Positions 6,180-12,314 of a stretch of DNA of 25,941 bases are shown here, piece by piece. How positions within the stretch are numbered: position 1 is the stretch's first letter; every line of letters begins with the position of its first letter. The translations under genes and the position numbers were made by a program. This stretch comes from Candidatus Heimdallarchaeota archaeon. Lineage in GTDB: Archaea; Asgardarchaeota; Heimdallarchaeia; Hodarchaeales; Hodarchaeaceae. Below the pieces are notes generated by a model, which was given only the letters and a program-made list of their open reading frames with translations, searched no databases and was not told the origin of the DNA. Where the stretch lies: contig JBHLSH010000057.1 of the NCBI GenBank assembly GCA_048881705.1, forward strand, positions 1 to 25,941, in the 5' to 3' direction.

Positions 6180-6800
6180 TTATCTCCCCATCACGAAACC
6201 GACTCCAGAAATCAGGAAAAACAGTCCATATAAAACGCCAATCAGGTCATGTGAGTAGAAGTAACCCACCATTAGAAACAATGTCCCGAAAATAAAGAAT
6301 GTAATTATGGCAGTCCACTCTGCACTGGGACCCCTCTGGGATTGGGCGGTAATGCGTATGAATTGGTATCGTGTGAAACTACGAATTAACAATGCGGAAG
6401 AAACAGCCAAGTAGGGGAATGCCAAAATAGAAGCCAACCCGATCGAGAGGGTTGCCGTTTCATTCCCCGGAAGAACATTGATAACAAACGAAAGCATGGA
6501 ATTTCGTCCGAGGGGGAACATAGGCGCAACAAAGAGCACTAACAAAGGAATGATATTAGCTAGCGAGAGGAAATAAATTTCATTCAGCGTGGCCTTATGA
6601 TCTAGATAAAAAAACATACGTAAAAAGTAGAATATTGTGACTGTCGCGTAAAGGGTTAAAAACAACAAATCCAAGGCAGTTTCGTCTTGTTGTTGTATAA
6701 AAAAGAACACAGTGGCCGAAATCCCTAGTAAAAAAGCAAAGGAGGCGAGTGTGTGACGTGCGGCCATGGCATTATCATCTATTTGGGTATTCTGGATCAA
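6180..6800 (-). CDS. Hypothetical integral membrane protein (~6 TM)
   Basis: About six hydrophobic 18-24-aa segments. Start is either TTG 6800 or the ATG of MAARHTL. An AAGAA-TATATTT element ~30 nt upstream suggests its own promoter. Confidence 0.75.
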   Translation of the reverse strand: MIQNTQIDDNAMAARHTLASFAFLLGISATVFFFIQQQDETALDLLFLTLYATVTIFYFLRMFFYLDHKATLNEIYFLSLANIIPLLVLFVAPMFPLGRNSMLSFVINVLPGNETATLSIGLASILAFPYLAVSSALLIRSFTRYQFIRITAQSQRGPSAEWTAIITFFIFGTLFLMVGYFYSHDLIGVLYGLFFLISGVGFVMGR

Positions 6801-6959: not shown

Positions 6960-8069
6960 TCACCTTCCCTTGTTATATGATTTGATTATCTGGGCATACT
7001 GCCGTCCTGACACTCGAATAGCGGAAGAAGAGGAGAGGTGTTTGTTACATCGAGAGCAGGCTCCAGCTACTGCGATCCATTTCTGGAATTCATTGCCATG
7101 AGCAGGATATCTGCAGTGTGGACAGATCACCACTTCTTTGTGATCTTCTATTGGAAACTCATAACAAAAGATACATCTAAAATCATCTTTGCTAATATTT
7201 CTTCCCATAGGGACATATTTAGACAAATTTGTTCTTGTTACTTTCGCCATACTCTGTTGGGCAGTCTGTACCTGTAATCCGGGAGCCACACGGACATCCC
7301 GACGGATATTTTGGGTTCGAGAAGCAGCACTTCGAGTGTTTGATGATAATCTGGGCTGTGGGGAGCGCCGTTCTGATATTGATCTACGATCTCTTGATGA
7401 TCTCGGCCGTATCGTCCGAGAAGAGGTCTGTCGGGTACGAGGAACCCGTTTAAACGGAACAAGAACAATTTTCATTATATAATGTTGAATAAATAAACCC
7501 AAACTTAAGATACAAAACAGTAAGCCCCCAAATTCAATTAATCCCTGTTCAATCCAATAGAGGAAGAATATGATGACCAAGGAAAAATTATGGACAATCA
7601 CCGCTTCGTTCGGAAATGGACGTCGATTTATAAAAAATTTAGGATACTGGCCAATATAATAACGGCGAAGAAGTATAAGTAGCGCTCCCATTGATGGGAT
7701 CACGATAATTAAACCAAAGAGGTTCCAGAAAATACTTACGCCACCCAAATTTAGAAAACTTAAATCTAACGATATATCGAAAAGAGAAGTTTGGAGCATA
7801 TCATTAATCCCAAAGGAAGCCAAGTGGGCCAAGAGGCTTCCTCCCACCCCTATCAGAGTAGGAATCACAAGGAAGGTCGCAGAAGCTAACGGCGCGTTAT
7901 ATGACCTAAAATAACGCCATTCGTCTACCAGTTTTATCAGGAGAAGACTAACAAAGGTGAGAAAGAAAAATGTTAAAGCGACGTTCTGAGGTTGACCGAT
8001 GACCAGAGAAAGAATGCCGAAGACAAATCCAATGACAAACACAACAATGTAGGTATTCCGTTTGATCAC
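6960..8069 (-). CDS. Multi-pass membrane protein with C-terminal RING-like zinc finger (putative membrane E3 ligase)
   Basis: About 6 TM helices, an Arg/Ser-rich linker, then C-x2-C-x13-C-x2-C-x4-H-x2-E-x3-W-x6-C-x2-C (CIFC...CPHCRYPAHGNEFQKWIAVAGACSRC). It is the last gene of the E1/E2/JAMM run. Confidence 0.8.
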   Translation of the reverse strand: MIKRNTYIVVFVIGFVFGILSLVIGQPQNVALTFFFLTFVSLLLIKLVDEWRYFRSYNAPLASATFLVIPTLIGVGGSLLAHLASFGINDMLQTSLFDISLDLSFLNLGGVSIFWNLFGLIIVIPSMGALLILLRRYYIGQYPKFFINRRPFPNEAVIVHNFSLVIIFFLYWIEQGLIEFGGLLFCILSLGLFIQHYIMKIVLVPFKRVPRTRQTSSRTIRPRSSRDRRSISERRSPQPRLSSNTRSAASRTQNIRRDVRVAPGLQVQTAQQSMAKVTRTNLSKYVPMGRNISKDDFRCIFCYEFPIEDHKEVVICPHCRYPAHGNEFQKWIAVAGACSRCNKHLSSSSAIRVSGRQYAQIIKSYNKGR

Positions 8070-8103: not shown

Positions 8104-8982
8104 TTATTCGTGGTCATATTCCAGAAACATCGTTTTACCTTCTGCCAACGGTAACAAGGTTTGGATCATCTGAGGAAGGCTTTCTAAGGGACAGTTCAAA
8201 ACTCGGAAGCTTGGCTCCTCCCACGTCCGTAGGTCCTTCCTTAATCGAAAAATCTTGAATCCATACGAGGAAGAGGAAATTTCGGTCGGATCAATAACCA
8301 AAGCAATGGGAGCCGCCAAATGAGAACCTTGACTGCCAAGCCTTTGATAACGTACCTGGGTTTGAAAATCCGTTTTACTCATGAAAGGGGAATAGGATGG
8401 ATGAGAATGGTACCACCCGAGTATTCGGTGTCCTGCCTTCACTGCATCCTCATAAACTTTCACCATGCTTTGCGGATCTTGGATTTGTGCGTTGACATTT
8501 GTACCGTGTCCAATTGGATAGGCATCCGTAACCACCAAGCATGTTAAAGGAGTGTTTGGATGTTCCACATGTCCCGTAAGAAGGCCAATGACCTCTACCC
8601 ATTCAGAGCGGGGAAGAGAATCATTAGCATACTTTAAAGCATGAAGCGCCAGCTTTAGATATGCCTTAAGGTTAAGTTTCACCCGAGGTGGCTCATGAAG
8701 TTCACCTAAATCAATGTCCAAATCAGTTACAACATCATCTCTCCTGTGTTTTGTATCCGTCCGCGTAGCGGGAGGAGATCGATCTTCATCGGAATGGAGG
8801 GTCATGACGGAAGGTGTTCTATGATGCGATCCCTTAGATAACGCCCGTTCCAGTGATTTATCAGGGGTAGAGACTTTCAATGTGATAGTTGACAATTTGG
8901 GGTCGAACATCAATGATACGTCTCGCAGGAAGAATTCAAAGGTACTAGGACCATGGCCTCTACGTCTTGGTTCTTTATCTAT
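8104..8982 (-). CDS. JAMM/MPN+ metalloprotease, Rpn11/CSN5-like (Ubl isopeptidase)
   Basis: EVIGLLTG (catalytic Glu), GWYHSHPSYSPFMSKTD (H-x-H-x7-S-x2-D) and ALVIDP. Start is uncertain: TTG/ATG at 8913/8910, but the frame is open to 8988 with an ATA at 8982 six nt behind an AGGTGA SD. Confidence 0.92.
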   Translation of the reverse strand: MDKEPRRRGHGPSTFEFFLRDVSLMFDPKLSTITLKVSTPDKSLERALSKGSHHRTPSVMTLHSDEDRSPPATRTDTKHRRDDVVTDLDIDLGELHEPPRVKLNLKAYLKLALHALKYANDSLPRSEWVEVIGLLTGHVEHPNTPLTCLVVTDAYPIGHGTNVNAQIQDPQSMVKVYEDAVKAGHRILGWYHSHPSYSPFMSKTDFQTQVRYQRLGSQGSHLAAPIALVIDPTEISSSSYGFKIFRLRKDLRTWEEPSFRVLNCPLESLPQMIQTLLPLAEGKTMFLEYDHE

Positions 8983-9010: not shown

Positions 9011-9538
9011 CTACCATTTCTTGTTGGCATATTTCTTTGTAATCTCTTGGGCTTTTTTCTTAAACTTCTCAGGACTATTCAAATACTCCACAGCGGCCTT
9101 CTTATTGAAAACATCCCTAGGGTTGGTATATGCCGCATCCACATCCAACATTGCAAGAATCGAATGAATCACCGTGGTAATATTTTTGGAAGGGGACCAC
9201 CCATCGGGCCGTCCAACTAGATCGGGGTCAATGAGAGCCAAACAGATATTCCGTTTCCCCTTATATTCATCAGGCTTAGGCCAAAAATTGGGATGCCAGA
9301 TTGGAGTATGTAAACGGACGAATGGGGGAATATAGGGATAATTTCCTCCGAACTTGATTTCGAGCTTGAATTTGCCCTTGCTGTACGGGGTTCCTTTCGG
9401 GCCTTCAAGGAGCAGGGCTAGGTGCTCAACAGATTTTTTTGGTCCCGGGAAAGCTTTCAGCTGTTTTATTGTCCCGCTTTTGTACAGCTTCTTCAGCTGA
9501 TTATAATCTTTGGAGATGCGTTTTATTCGAATTGAAAT
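9011..9538 (-). CDS. E2 ubiquitin-conjugating (UBC) enzyme, ~175 aa, probable ATT start
   Basis: Manual extension of track ORF 9011..9241 gives (M)SIRIKRISKDYNQLKKL...LLEGPKGTPYSKGKFKLEIKFGGNYPYIPPFVRLHTPIWHPNFWPKPDEYKGKRNICLALIDP...GWSPSKNITTVIHSILAML...NPRDVFNKKAA. It carries GPxGTPY, YPxxPP, HPN and the catalytic Cys. AGGAGGT lies 8 nt upstream of ATT at 9538. Confidence 0.93.
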   Translation of the reverse strand: MSIRIKRISKDYNQLKKLYKSGTIKQLKAFPGPKKSVEHLALLLEGPKGTPYSKGKFKLEIKFGGNYPYIPPFVRLHTPIWHPNFWPKPDEYKGKRNICLALIDPDLVGRPDGWSPSKNITTVIHSILAMLDVDAAYTNPRDVFNKKAAVEYLNSPEKFKKKAQEITKKYANKKW

Positions 9539-9551
9539 TGTGGTAAACCTC

Positions 9552-10796
9552 CTATTTGTACTGTAAATTCAAATATATTTCGGGGACATTCTCAAACCCC
9601 GTTACTAATACGGATTCGTGATTTCGAATGTTGAGATCCTCGAGGGATAAATCTAAGGAGATTTCATCTACTTCCGAGGAATCGATTCGAAAAACTGTTG
9701 GAGGAAATTCAGAATCGAAAGAGATTTTCTTCTTGTTAGCAATAAAATCAATGACCTTACGAACAGAATGGCTTGGTTTTGTTCGAATTCGATACAAGGG
9801 AGACCTACGAGGCCCACACAATTCACATTCTTGATTTCGAGGTTTAGGAATTTCGTAAAACTTCCCCGTTAGGCCGTTGTATATTATGTAGTTTAGCTGG
9901 AGCGTTCCAAGTTTCTGCTCATCAGAAGGTGTACGTAAATGATGAAGAATCTTAACCGCTTCTTGAGACTGGATTGAAGCGACAACTGTGTTTATGGTGA
10001 TCACTGTTGGTTCGTGGTTATCGATGATTTGAATGATCTGATCTACTGTGAATGGATTTACACCTGGGAAATGCTCTTGAAGAAGAGAGTTTGCGTAAGC
10101 TTGAACTTCCTTTATTTCGTCTATGTGCAAGATGTCGGCATTTCGACCATGGTCTTGTTCAAATTTTAGTTGCCCCTTCAATATACAATGGGCAGGACGA
10201 CGAGGAACACCCACTAAAGTACAAGCACCTAGTTGATCCTGTTCCCGTTCAGTCAAAGGATCACATTCCAAGCAAGCGTTGTGGAATGGCCATACAACAT
10301 AGATATGGCCATTGTAGGCGGCGGTGCCTGCATCTATCAATGGTTTTCTGAAGTGGATCGCACGACGATTAAGCTCCGATCGCGCCTCAATAGAATCTAA
10401 TCCAGCAACAAACAGATCAGCTTCGCAATAAAGCTGAGGAGCGAGGTCTTGCAGCGCCATATGATATCCTTCAACTTGAATGAAGGGATTTAACTTACGA
10501 AGCTGTTTGGCTGCGTATTCGGCTTTGGAGCTCCCTTCTGGTGCGCCAACAAAGAGAACCTGCCTATTAAGATTCGAGTACTCGATTGTGTCAAGATCCA
10601 CAAGGATGAGCCTGCCTACTCCTACCATCGCGAGGTTTTTCGCGATTTCCACTCCGAGACCTCCGATTCCTGCGAGGAGAACCGTGCTCTGTTTCAATAA
10701 CTCCTGGTTCCAGCCGGGAAGCCGGAATTGCCTATCAAAGCGTTGTTTTTCCTCATCCGAAAGGAGTTCACTTGTGAAATTCGACCGTTGGCTCAT
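9552..10796 (-). CDS. E1 Ubl-activating enzyme, Uba3/Uba2-like, with C-terminal ubiquitin-fold domain
   Basis: RFDRQ, GIGGLG, DLDTIEYSNLNRQ, two Zn pairs (CLEC, CELC), catalytic ACTLVGVPRRPAHC and a ~85-aa C-terminal beta-grasp-like tail. Start is ATG 10796 (MSQRS) or TTG 10814 abutting the Ubl stop. Confidence 0.95.
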   Translation of the reverse strand: MSQRSNFTSELLSDEEKQRFDRQFRLPGWNQELLKQSTVLLAGIGGLGVEIAKNLAMVGVGRLILVDLDTIEYSNLNRQVLFVGAPEGSSKAEYAAKQLRKLNPFIQVEGYHMALQDLAPQLYCEADLFVAGLDSIEARSELNRRAIHFRKPLIDAGTAAYNGHIYVVWPFHNACLECDPLTEREQDQLGACTLVGVPRRPAHCILKGQLKFEQDHGRNADILHIDEIKEVQAYANSLLQEHFPGVNPFTVDQIIQIIDNHEPTVITINTVVASIQSQEAVKILHHLRTPSDEQKLGTLQLNYIIYNGLTGKFYEIPKPRNQECELCGPRRSPLYRIRTKPSHSVRKVIDFIANKKKISFDSEFPPTVFRIDSSEVDEISLDLSLEDLNIRNHESVLVTGFENVPEIYLNLQYK

Positions 10797-10814: not shown

Positions 10815-11213
10815 TTAACCTGCGGTTGATACAGGAATGATCAAACATTCTAGACCGTCTTCGATTTCGTAGTTGCCTAATATGTCATCTGGATCCAGTG
10901 TTCTCCCAGAAATAGATAAATGAAAATCCTGGGGATCAAGACCAAAGATCTGGCCAACTGTTATGGTGAGTTCTCGAACTGGCATTTCTGAATCAACCAT
11001 GAGTTTTTCGAGCTTCTCACCAGGACCAATCGTCGAGCGAAAATACAGATTTACACGGACGCCATGAGGAATTTTGGAGCTGGCTGGAGTTTTAGAATCA
11101 ATTCCAGGAGAAGGAGCTGGTTTAGGAGTTTCGGTATCATCTTCTGCCAAGTCTTCCATATCATCGAAGTCTTCATTTTCTTCTAGGGGTTTACGTTCTT
11201 CATTTTCAGACAT
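10815..11213 (-). CDS. Ubiquitin-like protein A (132 aa; acidic N-terminal tail; ends IPVSTAG)
   Basis: The C-terminal ~80 aa align by eye to ubiquitin (LYFRSTIG...IFGLDPQDFHLSISGRTLD...LGNYEIEDG...LIIPVSTAG). ATG at 11213 has AAAGGTGA upstream. The track's 11279 start lies in the promoter. Confidence 0.9.
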   Translation of the reverse strand: MSENEERKPLEENEDFDDMEDLAEDDTETPKPAPSPGIDSKTPASSKIPHGVRVNLYFRSTIGPGEKLEKLMVDSEMPVRELTITVGQIFGLDPQDFHLSISGRTLDPDDILGNYEIEDGLECLIIPVSTAG

Positions 11214-11274
11214 GTAATCACCTTTCCAACTAAATAAGGTTGGGTACATGTATCTAAGAGAACGGAGAGTGAAG

Positions 11275-11292
11275 TACACTTTAAACCTTCCT
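11275..11292 (-). promoter_or_regulatory. Candidate TATA box for the UblA-E1-E2-JAMM-RING operon
   Basis: The minus strand reads AGGAAGG-TTTAAA ~70 nt upstream of the UblA ATG, downstream of the UblB oligo-T tract. Confidence 0.4.
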
Positions 11293-11364
11293 ATTTAGAA
11301 GTGAATGGTTTTTTGATGGAATCATGGGAGGATATTGGTTTCTCTTGGACGGATCCATAGTGGA

Positions 11365-11385
11365 AGATAAAGAGAAAAAAAACAC
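11365..11385 (-). terminator. Oligo-T archaeal terminator after UblB
   Basis: The minus strand reads GTGTTTTTTTTCTCTTT (T8, forward A-run 11375-11382) ~25 nt after the UblB stop. Confidence 0.55.
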
Positions 11386-11406
11386 AGAATGAGGTCGGTA
11401 AAAACC

Positions 11407-11757
11407 TCATCCGGCTGTACTATGGGGGATTAACAGGATTTCATCCCCGTTATTAATCCCATAATCTCCGATTGGAGCAGACTCATCCAACGTACGTCCC
11501 GCGTGAGACAGGTGGAAGTCATCGGGATTCAACCCGAAAATGTTAGCTAACGTGTCACGAACGTCGCGAACAGGGGTATTTTCACCAACCGAGAGCTTTT
11601 CGGTTCGTTCAGGGCCCACTGTAGATTTAAAAAAAACATTCTTTCGTGGACCAGCACCAGTAGCAGATACAGGTGTTTTAGATTGGGCTGGAGTTTTGGA
11701 TTTAACTTGAGTTTGCCCTTCCTCAAGATCAAAGTCTAAATCTTCAAAGTCACTCAT
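11407..11757 (-). CDS. Ubiquitin-like protein B (116 aa; acidic N-terminal tail; ends IPHSTAG)
   Basis: NVFFKSTVG...IFGLNPDDFHLSHAGRTLDESAPIGDYGINNGDEILLIPHSTAG is a clear ubiquitin beta-grasp pattern and a paralogue of UblA. Confidence 0.92.
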   Translation of the reverse strand: MSDFEDLDFDLEEGQTQVKSKTPAQSKTPVSATGAGPRKNVFFKSTVGPERTEKLSVGENTPVRDVRDTLANIFGLNPDDFHLSHAGRTLDESAPIGDYGINNGDEILLIPHSTAG

Positions 11758-11933: not shown

Positions 11934-12314
11934 GTGCCCACAGATGCTCATAACGTCAAAATATCGGATAAGGCTTGGCAGCTACTACGCTGGGCAAAAC
12001 ATGAGCTGGATGTAAAGTCATACAGCGATGTTATTATTACACTGGATGAACAGATCACAAATAGCAGGAAAAAACTAGAGGAATCGCTAAAAACATTCGA
12101 TGTGGAGAGACATCGGATCCAGACTAAAACCCCTGAAGATTCTGGACTGAGAGCCTCTCCTGGTCCAAAAACCATTTTATTGCAAACGGACGCACGGAGA
12201 ATTCTAAATCGATTAAAATTGGAAAGTGACAGAGCAGATTACACATTTTCTGATGCTATCGACTTTCTTGTAGGAATTAGTGGGATCGAGATACCAGAAA
12301 GACTCAAAAAATAA
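11934..12314 (+). CDS. Tandem ribbon-helix-helix-type DNA-binding protein (putative regulator)
   Basis: Two similar units, HNVKISDKAWQLLRWAKHELDVKSYSDVIITL and KTILLQTDARRILNRLKLESDRADYTFSDAIDFL, each match the strand-helix-[YF]SD[VA]I-helix pattern of archaeal RHH/VapB-like proteins. GTG start. Confidence 0.65.
   Translation: MPTDAHNVKISDKAWQLLRWAKHELDVKSYSDVIITLDEQITNSRKKLEESLKTFDVERHRIQTKTPEDSGLRASPGPKTILLQTDARRILNRLKLESDRADYTFSDAIDFLVGISGIEIPERLKK

Follow-up and report, generated by a model that had tools for sequence, protein, structure and literature searches.

Organization of the locus

The DNA analysed here (the window) is a 25,941-nucleotide stretch, contig JBHLSH010000057.1, from the assembly GCA_048881705.1 of a Candidatus Heimdallarchaeota archaeon of the order Hodarchaeales. 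It carries two tandem genes for ubiquitin-like proteins (Ubls), Ubl2 and Ubl1, whose products end in Ser-Thr-Ala-Gly instead of Gly-Gly. Both proteins are probably conjugatable modifiers of an Asgard-wide Ala-Gly family, run through an activating enzyme (E1), a conjugating enzyme (E2), a membrane RING-like protein and a JAMM metalloprotease encoded beside them. An earlier sequence-only reading had singled out these C-termini. The genes concerned are the following.

11407..11757, minus strand: Ubl2, ubiquitin-family modifier of 116 amino acids (aa); tail LIPHSTAG, STAG codons at 11410-11421, TGA stop at 11407-11409.
10815..11216, minus strand: Ubl1, paralogue of Ubl2, 133 aa; tail IIPVSTAG, STAG codons at 10818-10829, TAA stop at 10815-10817.
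9552..10796, minus strand: E1, ThiF-type activating enzyme, 414 aa (PF00899, 6e-53).
9011..9544, minus strand: E2 with the canonical UBC fold, an HPN motif and the catalytic Cys in NICLAL.
8104..8913, minus strand: JAMM/MPN+ metalloprotease with an intact HSHPSYSPFMSKTD (H-x-H-x7-S-x2-D) motif.
6960..8069, minus strand: putative RING-type ligase, a polytopic membrane protein of 369 aa with the C-terminal Cys/His finger CIFC...CPHC...CSRC.

Two paralogous tails

The stop codon adjoins the Gly codon in both Ubl genes, which agrees with the sequence-only reading that neither has a propeptide. Ubl1 starts at an ATG that gives 133 aa, a codon also used in its orthologues (equivalent MSENE...). The two proteins are 48% identical overall, and their last seven residues show a single mismatch, Val in Ubl1 against His in Ubl2; the earlier statement that the tails differ only at the equivalent of ubiquitin Arg72 thus stands. 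On this comparison it is the divergence of the cores and of the proteins as wholes, not of the tails, that mainly separates the paralogues.

The STAG codons read AGT ACA GCC GGA in Ubl2 and TCA ACC GCA GGT in Ubl1. Six of the 12 bases differ, all synonymously, which argues that the shared tail is maintained by selection and rules out recent gene conversion as its source. A sequencing or assembly error as the origin of Ala-Gly, which the sequence-only reading had discounted on the grounds that both paralogues have it, is ruled out as well, since the codons differ between the paralogues and 211 relatives agree.

The last Lys or Arg lies 28 residues before the C-terminus in both proteins. As had been anticipated, diGly-remnant proteomics would miss such conjugates because trypsin would leave a remnant of 28 residues.

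The 190-nt gap between Ubl2 and Ubl1 holds a terminator-like hairpin (11387..11412, minus strand) with a 10-bp stem followed by a T run, which overlaps the Ubl2 stop codon and extends just beyond it. The hairpin could allow a surplus of Ubl2 over Ubl1 and the enzymes. The N-terminal tails (11640-11757 and 11100-11216, minus strand) carry an acidic F-x-x-L block (MSDFEDLDF; MSFDEFDEDL in Lokiarchaeia) and a KSKTP motif throughout the phylum. These tails are conserved far beyond what is expected of a mere linker.

Fold and register with ubiquitin

Ubl2 matches the Pfam ubiquitin model PF00240 with an E-value of 2.8e-7 (30.7 bits against a cut-off of 25.4), and all 35 aligned family members match it; the match of Ubl1 alone did not reach E 0.01, though Ubl1 is 48% identical to Ubl2. 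In the AlphaFold2 model of Ubl2, made with 35 relatives, residues 1-36 form a disordered N-terminal tail and residues 38-111 a beta-grasp core, with a predicted local confidence (pLDDT) above 90 for residues 41-110. Its top Foldseek matches are structures of the Caldiarchaeum ubiquitin CsUb (6fno, 6fnn, 6fj7; E 1e-8). A second structural alignment gave Z scores of 13-15 to ISG15, ubiquitin, NEDD8 and CsUb, most of these matches with root mean square deviations of 1.1-3.6 A across 73-83 residues.

The family profile places Ile110 of Ubl2 on Val70 of ubiquitin without gaps, and structural alignments with 6nyo_E, 4auq_C and 2w9n superpose residue 116 on ubiquitin residue 76, so that the tail has the same length as that of ubiquitin. 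The register is Pro on Leu71, His or Val on Arg72, Ser on Leu73, Thr on Arg74, Ala on Gly75 and Gly on Gly76. The sequence-only reading had aligned the tails in this way, with Ala at Gly75 and the basic residues gone, and the two alignments together show that it was right.

Conservation of the Ala-Gly end

Relatives were collected by a word-indexed protein search, an exhaustive profile search, whole-genome searches of 400 Asgard genomes and inspection of named contigs, which together yielded 211 distinct family domains. Ala-Gly occupies ubiquitin positions 75-76 in all 211, STAG is present in 194 and Ile-Pro at positions 70-71 in 210. The Gly-Gly motif at the C-terminus of canonical conjugatable Ubls is absent from Ubl1, Ubl2 and every relative: an orthologue ending in Gly-Gly was sought among the 211 and none was found. 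The sequence-only reading had asked whether STAG is conserved in orthologues and had regarded a majority ending in Gly-Gly as evidence against its view; the counts are in its favor. Across the family the terminal Gly is exposed either directly, as in Ubl1 and Ubl2, or once a short tail has been removed.

A strong family match was found in 194 of the 400 genomes and in 41 of the 90 of high quality, with none in several families. The carriers belong to Hodarchaeales, other Heimdallarchaeia (including AB_125), Helarchaeota and Lokiarchaeia; the member in the cultured Lokiarchaeum ossiferum (NEF87_002996) ends in STAGI. The Ala-Gly proteins form a variant of the ubiquitin-type system known from archaea, and a strongly conserved one. 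A search of the literature for an Asgard Ubl of this type turned up no account of the Ala-Gly end.

Two larger kinds of protein contain related domains. One, in Lokiarchaeia, is a membrane protein (about 269 aa) whose gene lies between two Ala-Gly Ubl genes (locus L095, 4188-4994, minus strand; also L098, L099, L100, L106, L107 and L109). Its ubiquitin-like domain ends in IALIP[SL] followed by RKK and, lacking the Ala-Gly end, it is apparently a non-conjugatable relative. Proteins of about 585 aa (L117, 1504-3258; L116, 1462-3222) join a P-loop ATPase (GASGSGKT) at the N-terminus to a Ubl of the family at the C-terminus, and end in IPSSRAG-stop or in IPASTAG plus 14 residues. The contig JBHLRO010000009.1 (L039), which matches the window at 99% identity across the Ubl2 gene, bears the title 'Candidatus Thorarchaeota archaeon'; both its genes and its relatives place it in Hodarchaeales, and several other titles (Hermod, Odin) look similarly unreliable.

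The operon and its enzymes

Across Hodarchaeales, other Heimdallarchaeia (AB_125), Helarchaeota and Lokiarchaeia the genes keep the order Ubl, E1, E2, JAMM, membrane finger protein. This is the clustered gene set of Caldiarchaeum- and Asgard-type operons (Ubl, E1, E2, RING-type protein and Rpn11-like JAMM), the RING member being recognized by its Cys/His pattern only. The number of Ubl genes varies: two in tandem in Hodarchaeales, one of Val type in other Heimdallarchaeia including AB_125, and Ala-type copies in Lokiarchaeia, often three to five per genome. One metagenome-assembled genome of Helarchaeota has the operon.

The active-site motifs of E1, E2 and JAMM are intact in the window. The E1 combines a Gly-rich ATP loop with two CxxC pairs, the sequence ACTLVG with its invariant Cys, and a ubiquitin-fold-like domain at the C-terminus. 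Its nearest solved structures are the active adenylation domain of UBA1 and UBA3 (E 1e-33 to 1e-35), with UBA5 far off (about 4e-13); residues 32-362 align with residues 36-370 of the UBA3 chain, nearly the whole length including the C-terminal domain. At the K-G-N of UBA1 and UBA3, the family E1s read [YNH]-G-H with an invariant His.

The E2 matches UBE2L3, UBE2T and UBE2K. Its frame (9011-9559) contains no ATG, GTG or TTG upstream of the catalytic Cys, and the orthologue in locus L004 has a TTG start at a codon that reads Ile here (...TISIRIKRI); together these make a non-canonical E2 start likely. The operon includes the JAMM in every clade, as its sole protease candidate. The ligase candidate follows the JAMM in the loci of Hodarchaeales, Heimdallarchaeia, Helarchaeota and Lokiarchaeia.

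Two further genes accompany the operon.

6180..6800, minus strand: membrane protein of 206 aa, conserved 3' of the ligase candidate in Heimdallarchaeia.
11934-12314, plus strand: divergent ribbon-helix-helix-like protein of 126 aa, with a Pfam VAPB_antitox match just under the cut-off; a gene of this type occupies the same place in most Hodarchaeales loci that cover the upstream region.

Other Ubl-E1 pairs in the genome

Two separate Gly-Gly pairs occur in the same genome. One (contig C15, L001, 351-1722) consists of an 80-aa Ubl ending in TRTTGG-VDD and a 343-aa E1, the other (contig C72, L003, 151-1782) of a 101-aa Ubl ending in DQIKGG and a 409-aa E1. The Ala-Gly tag therefore marks one of three modifier systems. 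The sequence-only reading had proposed a distinct modifier class with a single terminal Gly; the uniform Ala-Gly end, the dedicated operon of E1, E2, JAMM and RING-like protein, and the separate Gly-Gly pairs all bear this out. The Ala-Gly tail would most likely insulate its pathway from the Gly-Gly pairs. The tail-binding residues were also compared with E1s of the Gly-Gly type (the two paralogues of this genome, UBA1 and UBA3), which are too few to give a firm signature.

Predicted complex of E1 and Ubl2

A structure prediction of the E1-Ubl complex, suggested by the sequence-only reading, was made for E1, the Ubl2 core and ATP/Mg. The complex scored 0.66 against 0.02 for the best control, a mark attained by 58 of the 80 solved complexes and by 2 of the 110 mismatched pairs. 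The runs agreed in at least 90% of contacts, with a partner pLDDT of at least 87. In the model the tail lies over the ATP site: residues 110-116 are predicted to rest on E1 residues 43-48 (the Gly loop), 132-136, 156-164 (a strand) and 179-186, the crossover region included. Residue 112 (position 72) would contact E1 residue 159, and Ser113 would contact His164, which is invariant in the family E1s and Asn in UBA1 and UBA3. Such residue-level contacts serve as leads only. Since similar complexes have already been solved, the score indicates likeness to solved E1-Ubl complexes and not binding of Ubl2 by this E1.

Propeptides and the role of the JAMM

Among the 211 domains, 116 end at the Gly and 91 (about 43%) add one to six variable residues. 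In the remaining four the sequence continues further, three of them being internal units within two head-to-tail genes and one belonging to a gene that extends another 14 residues. A two-residue tail is the commonest (47 of the 211 domains; 34 of 97 in a smaller set). Presence of a tail flips freely within the genus of the window, among sibling species that share the same operon. There, Ubl2 orthologues stop at the Gly or add WR or WN; the additions in Ubl1 orthologues, where present, are Y, YY, SIN, L, IYY, I, FDF, IK and SSNRS. Conservation that ends exactly at the Gly, followed by variable tails, is what a site of processing and activation usually looks like. The head-to-tail genes, both metagenomic, encode three (P0065) and two (P0066) divergent units, with the junctions STAG|S.., STAG|ADDDFEDF and SQAG|ADDFEDLDF. 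Tails and serial units together make a pattern known from ubiquitin-type precursors.

From the absence of a propeptide the sequence-only reading had concluded that the JAMM should act as a deconjugase and not as a maturase. For the two genes of this genome the statement holds. It fails as a general rule, since the family requires a maturase for the relatives with tails after the Gly and for the head-to-tail units.

Position 72 and the two paralogues

Residue 72 is the established discriminator between ubiquitin and NEDD8 (compare the titles of structures 3dbh, 3dbl and 3dbr); NEDD8 has Ala72. In the Ala-Gly family it is the sole freely variable position of the tail, with His in 66 of the 211 domains, Val in 64, Ala in 55, Ser in 13, Gln in 5, Phe in 3, Thr in 2, Ile in 2 and Leu in 1. 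The state follows the clade: Ala in Lokiarchaeia and Val in Heimdallarchaeia. All Hodarchaeales loci read that carry both copies have His (one Gln) in the upstream and Val in the downstream copy. Across these loci, His and Val are a fixed signature of the two paralogues.

With the Loki clade as root, a tree built from 99 distinct cores placed the downstream copies of Hodarchaeales in one Val clade (support 0.99) and the upstream copies in one His clade (support 0.998) that includes the one Gln. Two single-copy Val genes from a sister family adjoin the His clade, and Val is the state in Heimdallarchaeia. It follows from this pattern that His arose once, after the duplication, and was then retained.

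The sequence-only reading had supposed that the paralogues may be activated or removed with different efficiency. That His and Val are instead a mere lineage mark of an old duplication, without effect on activation or removal, the paralogues differing through their cores and N-terminal tails, is a serious possibility, if somewhat short of an even chance. A single origin of His within Hodarchaeales from a Val ancestor suits this explanation, as do the service of both Ubls by one E1, one E2 and one JAMM, the many other sites at which two proteins only 48% identical diverge, and the range of residues tolerated at position 72 across the family. Against it stand the fixation of position 72 in each paralogue in all two-copy Hodarchaeales loci read, and the predicted contact with E1 residue 159, which lies in a stretch altered in the same lineage. 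This stretch (E1 residues 156-162) reads AGTAAYN in Hodarchaeales, GGTATYY in other Heimdallarchaeia and GGVSGYH in Lokiarchaeia. Its co-variation with position 72 is inseparable from descent because the pattern follows the clades; it was set aside as evidence and kept as a lead.

Proposed pathway and its alternatives

Conjugation of Ubl1 and Ubl2 would proceed as follows. The E1 encoded directly 3' of the Ubl genes would bind the beta-grasp core, thread IP-x-STAG through its adenylation site, adenylate the terminal Gly and load the tag onto its own Cys. The tag would then move to the HPN-type E2 and from there to substrates with the help of the membrane RING-like protein. The JAMM would take the tag off substrates by cutting after the Gly, and in relatives with short tails or serial units the same cut would also free the Gly. 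Both Ubls should be ready for activation as made, since their genes stop directly after it. Ala75, with Ser-Thr in place of Leu-Arg, is the family mark and would most likely separate the pathway from the Gly-Gly pairs; His or Val at position 72 marks the two paralogues.

Several points weigh against this pathway. We infer conjugation by the family in Asgard archaea from genes and predictions, and we likewise infer the insulating role of Ala75. The score of the E1-Ubl2 complex may reflect resemblance to the solved UBA3-NEDD8 and UBA1-ubiquitin complexes. The ligase candidate has no Pfam match and is assigned to the RING type by its Cys/His pattern only. The contigs of the two head-to-tail genes are short (about 1.2 kb), and the coverage of one is low. 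Certain family members are not encoded near an E1 (locus L005 and several copies in Lokiarchaeia).

These isolated copies, the fact that no conjugates of the family have been seen and the related 269-aa membrane proteins of Lokiarchaeia, whose IALIPS-RKK domains lack the Ala-Gly end, would suit proteins that are not conjugated at all and serve instead as ubiquitin-like adaptors that bind non-covalently or as carriers activated by an E1, like MoaD, ThiS and Urm1. This is quite unlikely. The operon of every clade encodes an E2 with intact HPN and Cys, a RING-like finger protein and a JAMM with an intact active site, which sulfur-carrier systems do not have; sulfur-carrier Ubls of the MoaD, ThiS, Urm1 and SAMP type end in Gly-Gly and use an E1 without E2 or ligase, whereas here an Ala-Gly end occurs with an E2 and a finger protein. 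The tail is the most sharply conserved part, the extensions past the Gly are disposable, and head-to-tail precursors fit only a processed tag.

Relation to known systems

The operon of Caldiarchaeum subterraneum encodes pro-CsUb, an E1-like and an E2-like protein, a small RING finger protein and a Rpn11-like JAMM; CsUb has a Gly-Gly end and a propeptide of nine residues, and CsRpn11 performs both the maturation of the precursor and the removal of the tag (PMC5654768, PMC6043591). The Ala-Gly locus has the same clustered gene set, CsUb is the top Foldseek match of Ubl2, and the propeptide-bearing Ala-Gly relatives need a protease with the dual role of CsRpn11. It differs in the Ser-Thr-Ala-Gly end, in the disordered stretch of about 36 or more residues at the N-terminus (36 in Ubl2), in the polytopic membrane protein as ligase candidate and in the two tandem modifiers of Hodarchaeales.

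The Asgard ubiquitins HeimAB125_14240 and Odin LCB4_14240 were used in work on ubiquitin and ESCRT, in which the equivalent of Ile44 is residue 45 and a full-length model is given (PMC9192718). These proteins are likewise of the ubiquitin-family beta-grasp type and come from the same organisms; AB_125 also has an Ala-Gly member with its own E1 (L084). The ubiquitin of that study is encoded by a gene other than the Ala-Gly Ubl, since it is short and without a long N-terminal tail. Its counterpart here is likely the 80-aa gene on contig C15 that ends in TRTTGG-VDD. The Ala-Gly family is not discussed there (PMC9192718).

Likeness to NEDD8 and UBA3 consists in the non-basic position 72 and in the alignment of the E1 with nearly all of UBA3. 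NEDD8, in contrast, ends in LALRGG, and UBA3 partners with APPBP1, for which this locus has no gene. The entries 8HM1-3 in PDB were set aside as irrelevant, as they concern a Bacteroides ubiquitin homologue.

UFM1 is a single-Gly modifier with the tail ...ELRIIPRDRVG followed by a two-residue propeptide. The Ala-Gly tails resemble this sequence in the succession of an acidic residue, an aliphatic residue, I-P, four residues, a small aliphatic residue and Gly, with I-P five residues upstream of the Gly, and in that two residues are the commonest extension. The program hhalign puts GDEILLIPHSTA in register with GSELRIIPRDRV. A structure-based study from 2026 reports 'Ufm1 homologues' from nine clades of Asgard archaea and describes disordered ends and partial and multi-unit matches (PMC12962969), traits that match those of the Ala-Gly family.

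That the family is the archaeal counterpart of UFM1 and the locus a UFMylation-like system is nevertheless very improbable. The Pfam Ufm1 model (PF03671) matched none of the 35 aligned members (E up to 10) and nothing in the 400 Asgard genomes, and its best match in the window's own genome (E 0.475) lies elsewhere. The hhalign probability is 24.8% for UFM1 against 89.9% for ubiquitin. The top structures were ISG15, ubiquitin, NEDD8 and CsUb; UFM1 was not among the matches listed, an absence that excludes nothing. The E1 lies closest to UBA1 and UBA3, its likeness to UBA5 being weak, and the E2 has the HPN motif and the canonical UBC fold, whereas the UFC1 type has no HPN. Membership in the UFM1 family was therefore rejected on the Pfam result, the hhalign probability and enzymes unlike UBA5 and UFC1. 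A descent in which the Ala-Gly family is the Asgard stock ancestral to eukaryotic UFM1 and is the reported 'Ufm1 homologue', UBA5 and UFC1 having been recruited later, is quite unlikely too; its appeal lies in the I-I-P-x4-G tail, the small aliphatic residue before the Gly and the two-residue propeptide that UFM1 has in common with the family. If true, a UBA3-like E1 and an E2 of the HPN type worked with the archaeal form.

Conjugation through the Ala-Gly end, the preferred interpretation, bears on how eukaryotic ubiquitylation was assembled. Asgard ubiquitin-type operons are cited for its archaeal assembly and are usually read as Gly-Gly systems. In the one genome checked for such pairs, the Ala-Gly tag coexists with separate Gly-Gly Ubl-E1 pairs, which would mean that several insulated modifier pathways, distinguished by their tails, predate eukaryotes. 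The cultured carrier Lokiarchaeum ossiferum makes the Ala-Gly question testable.

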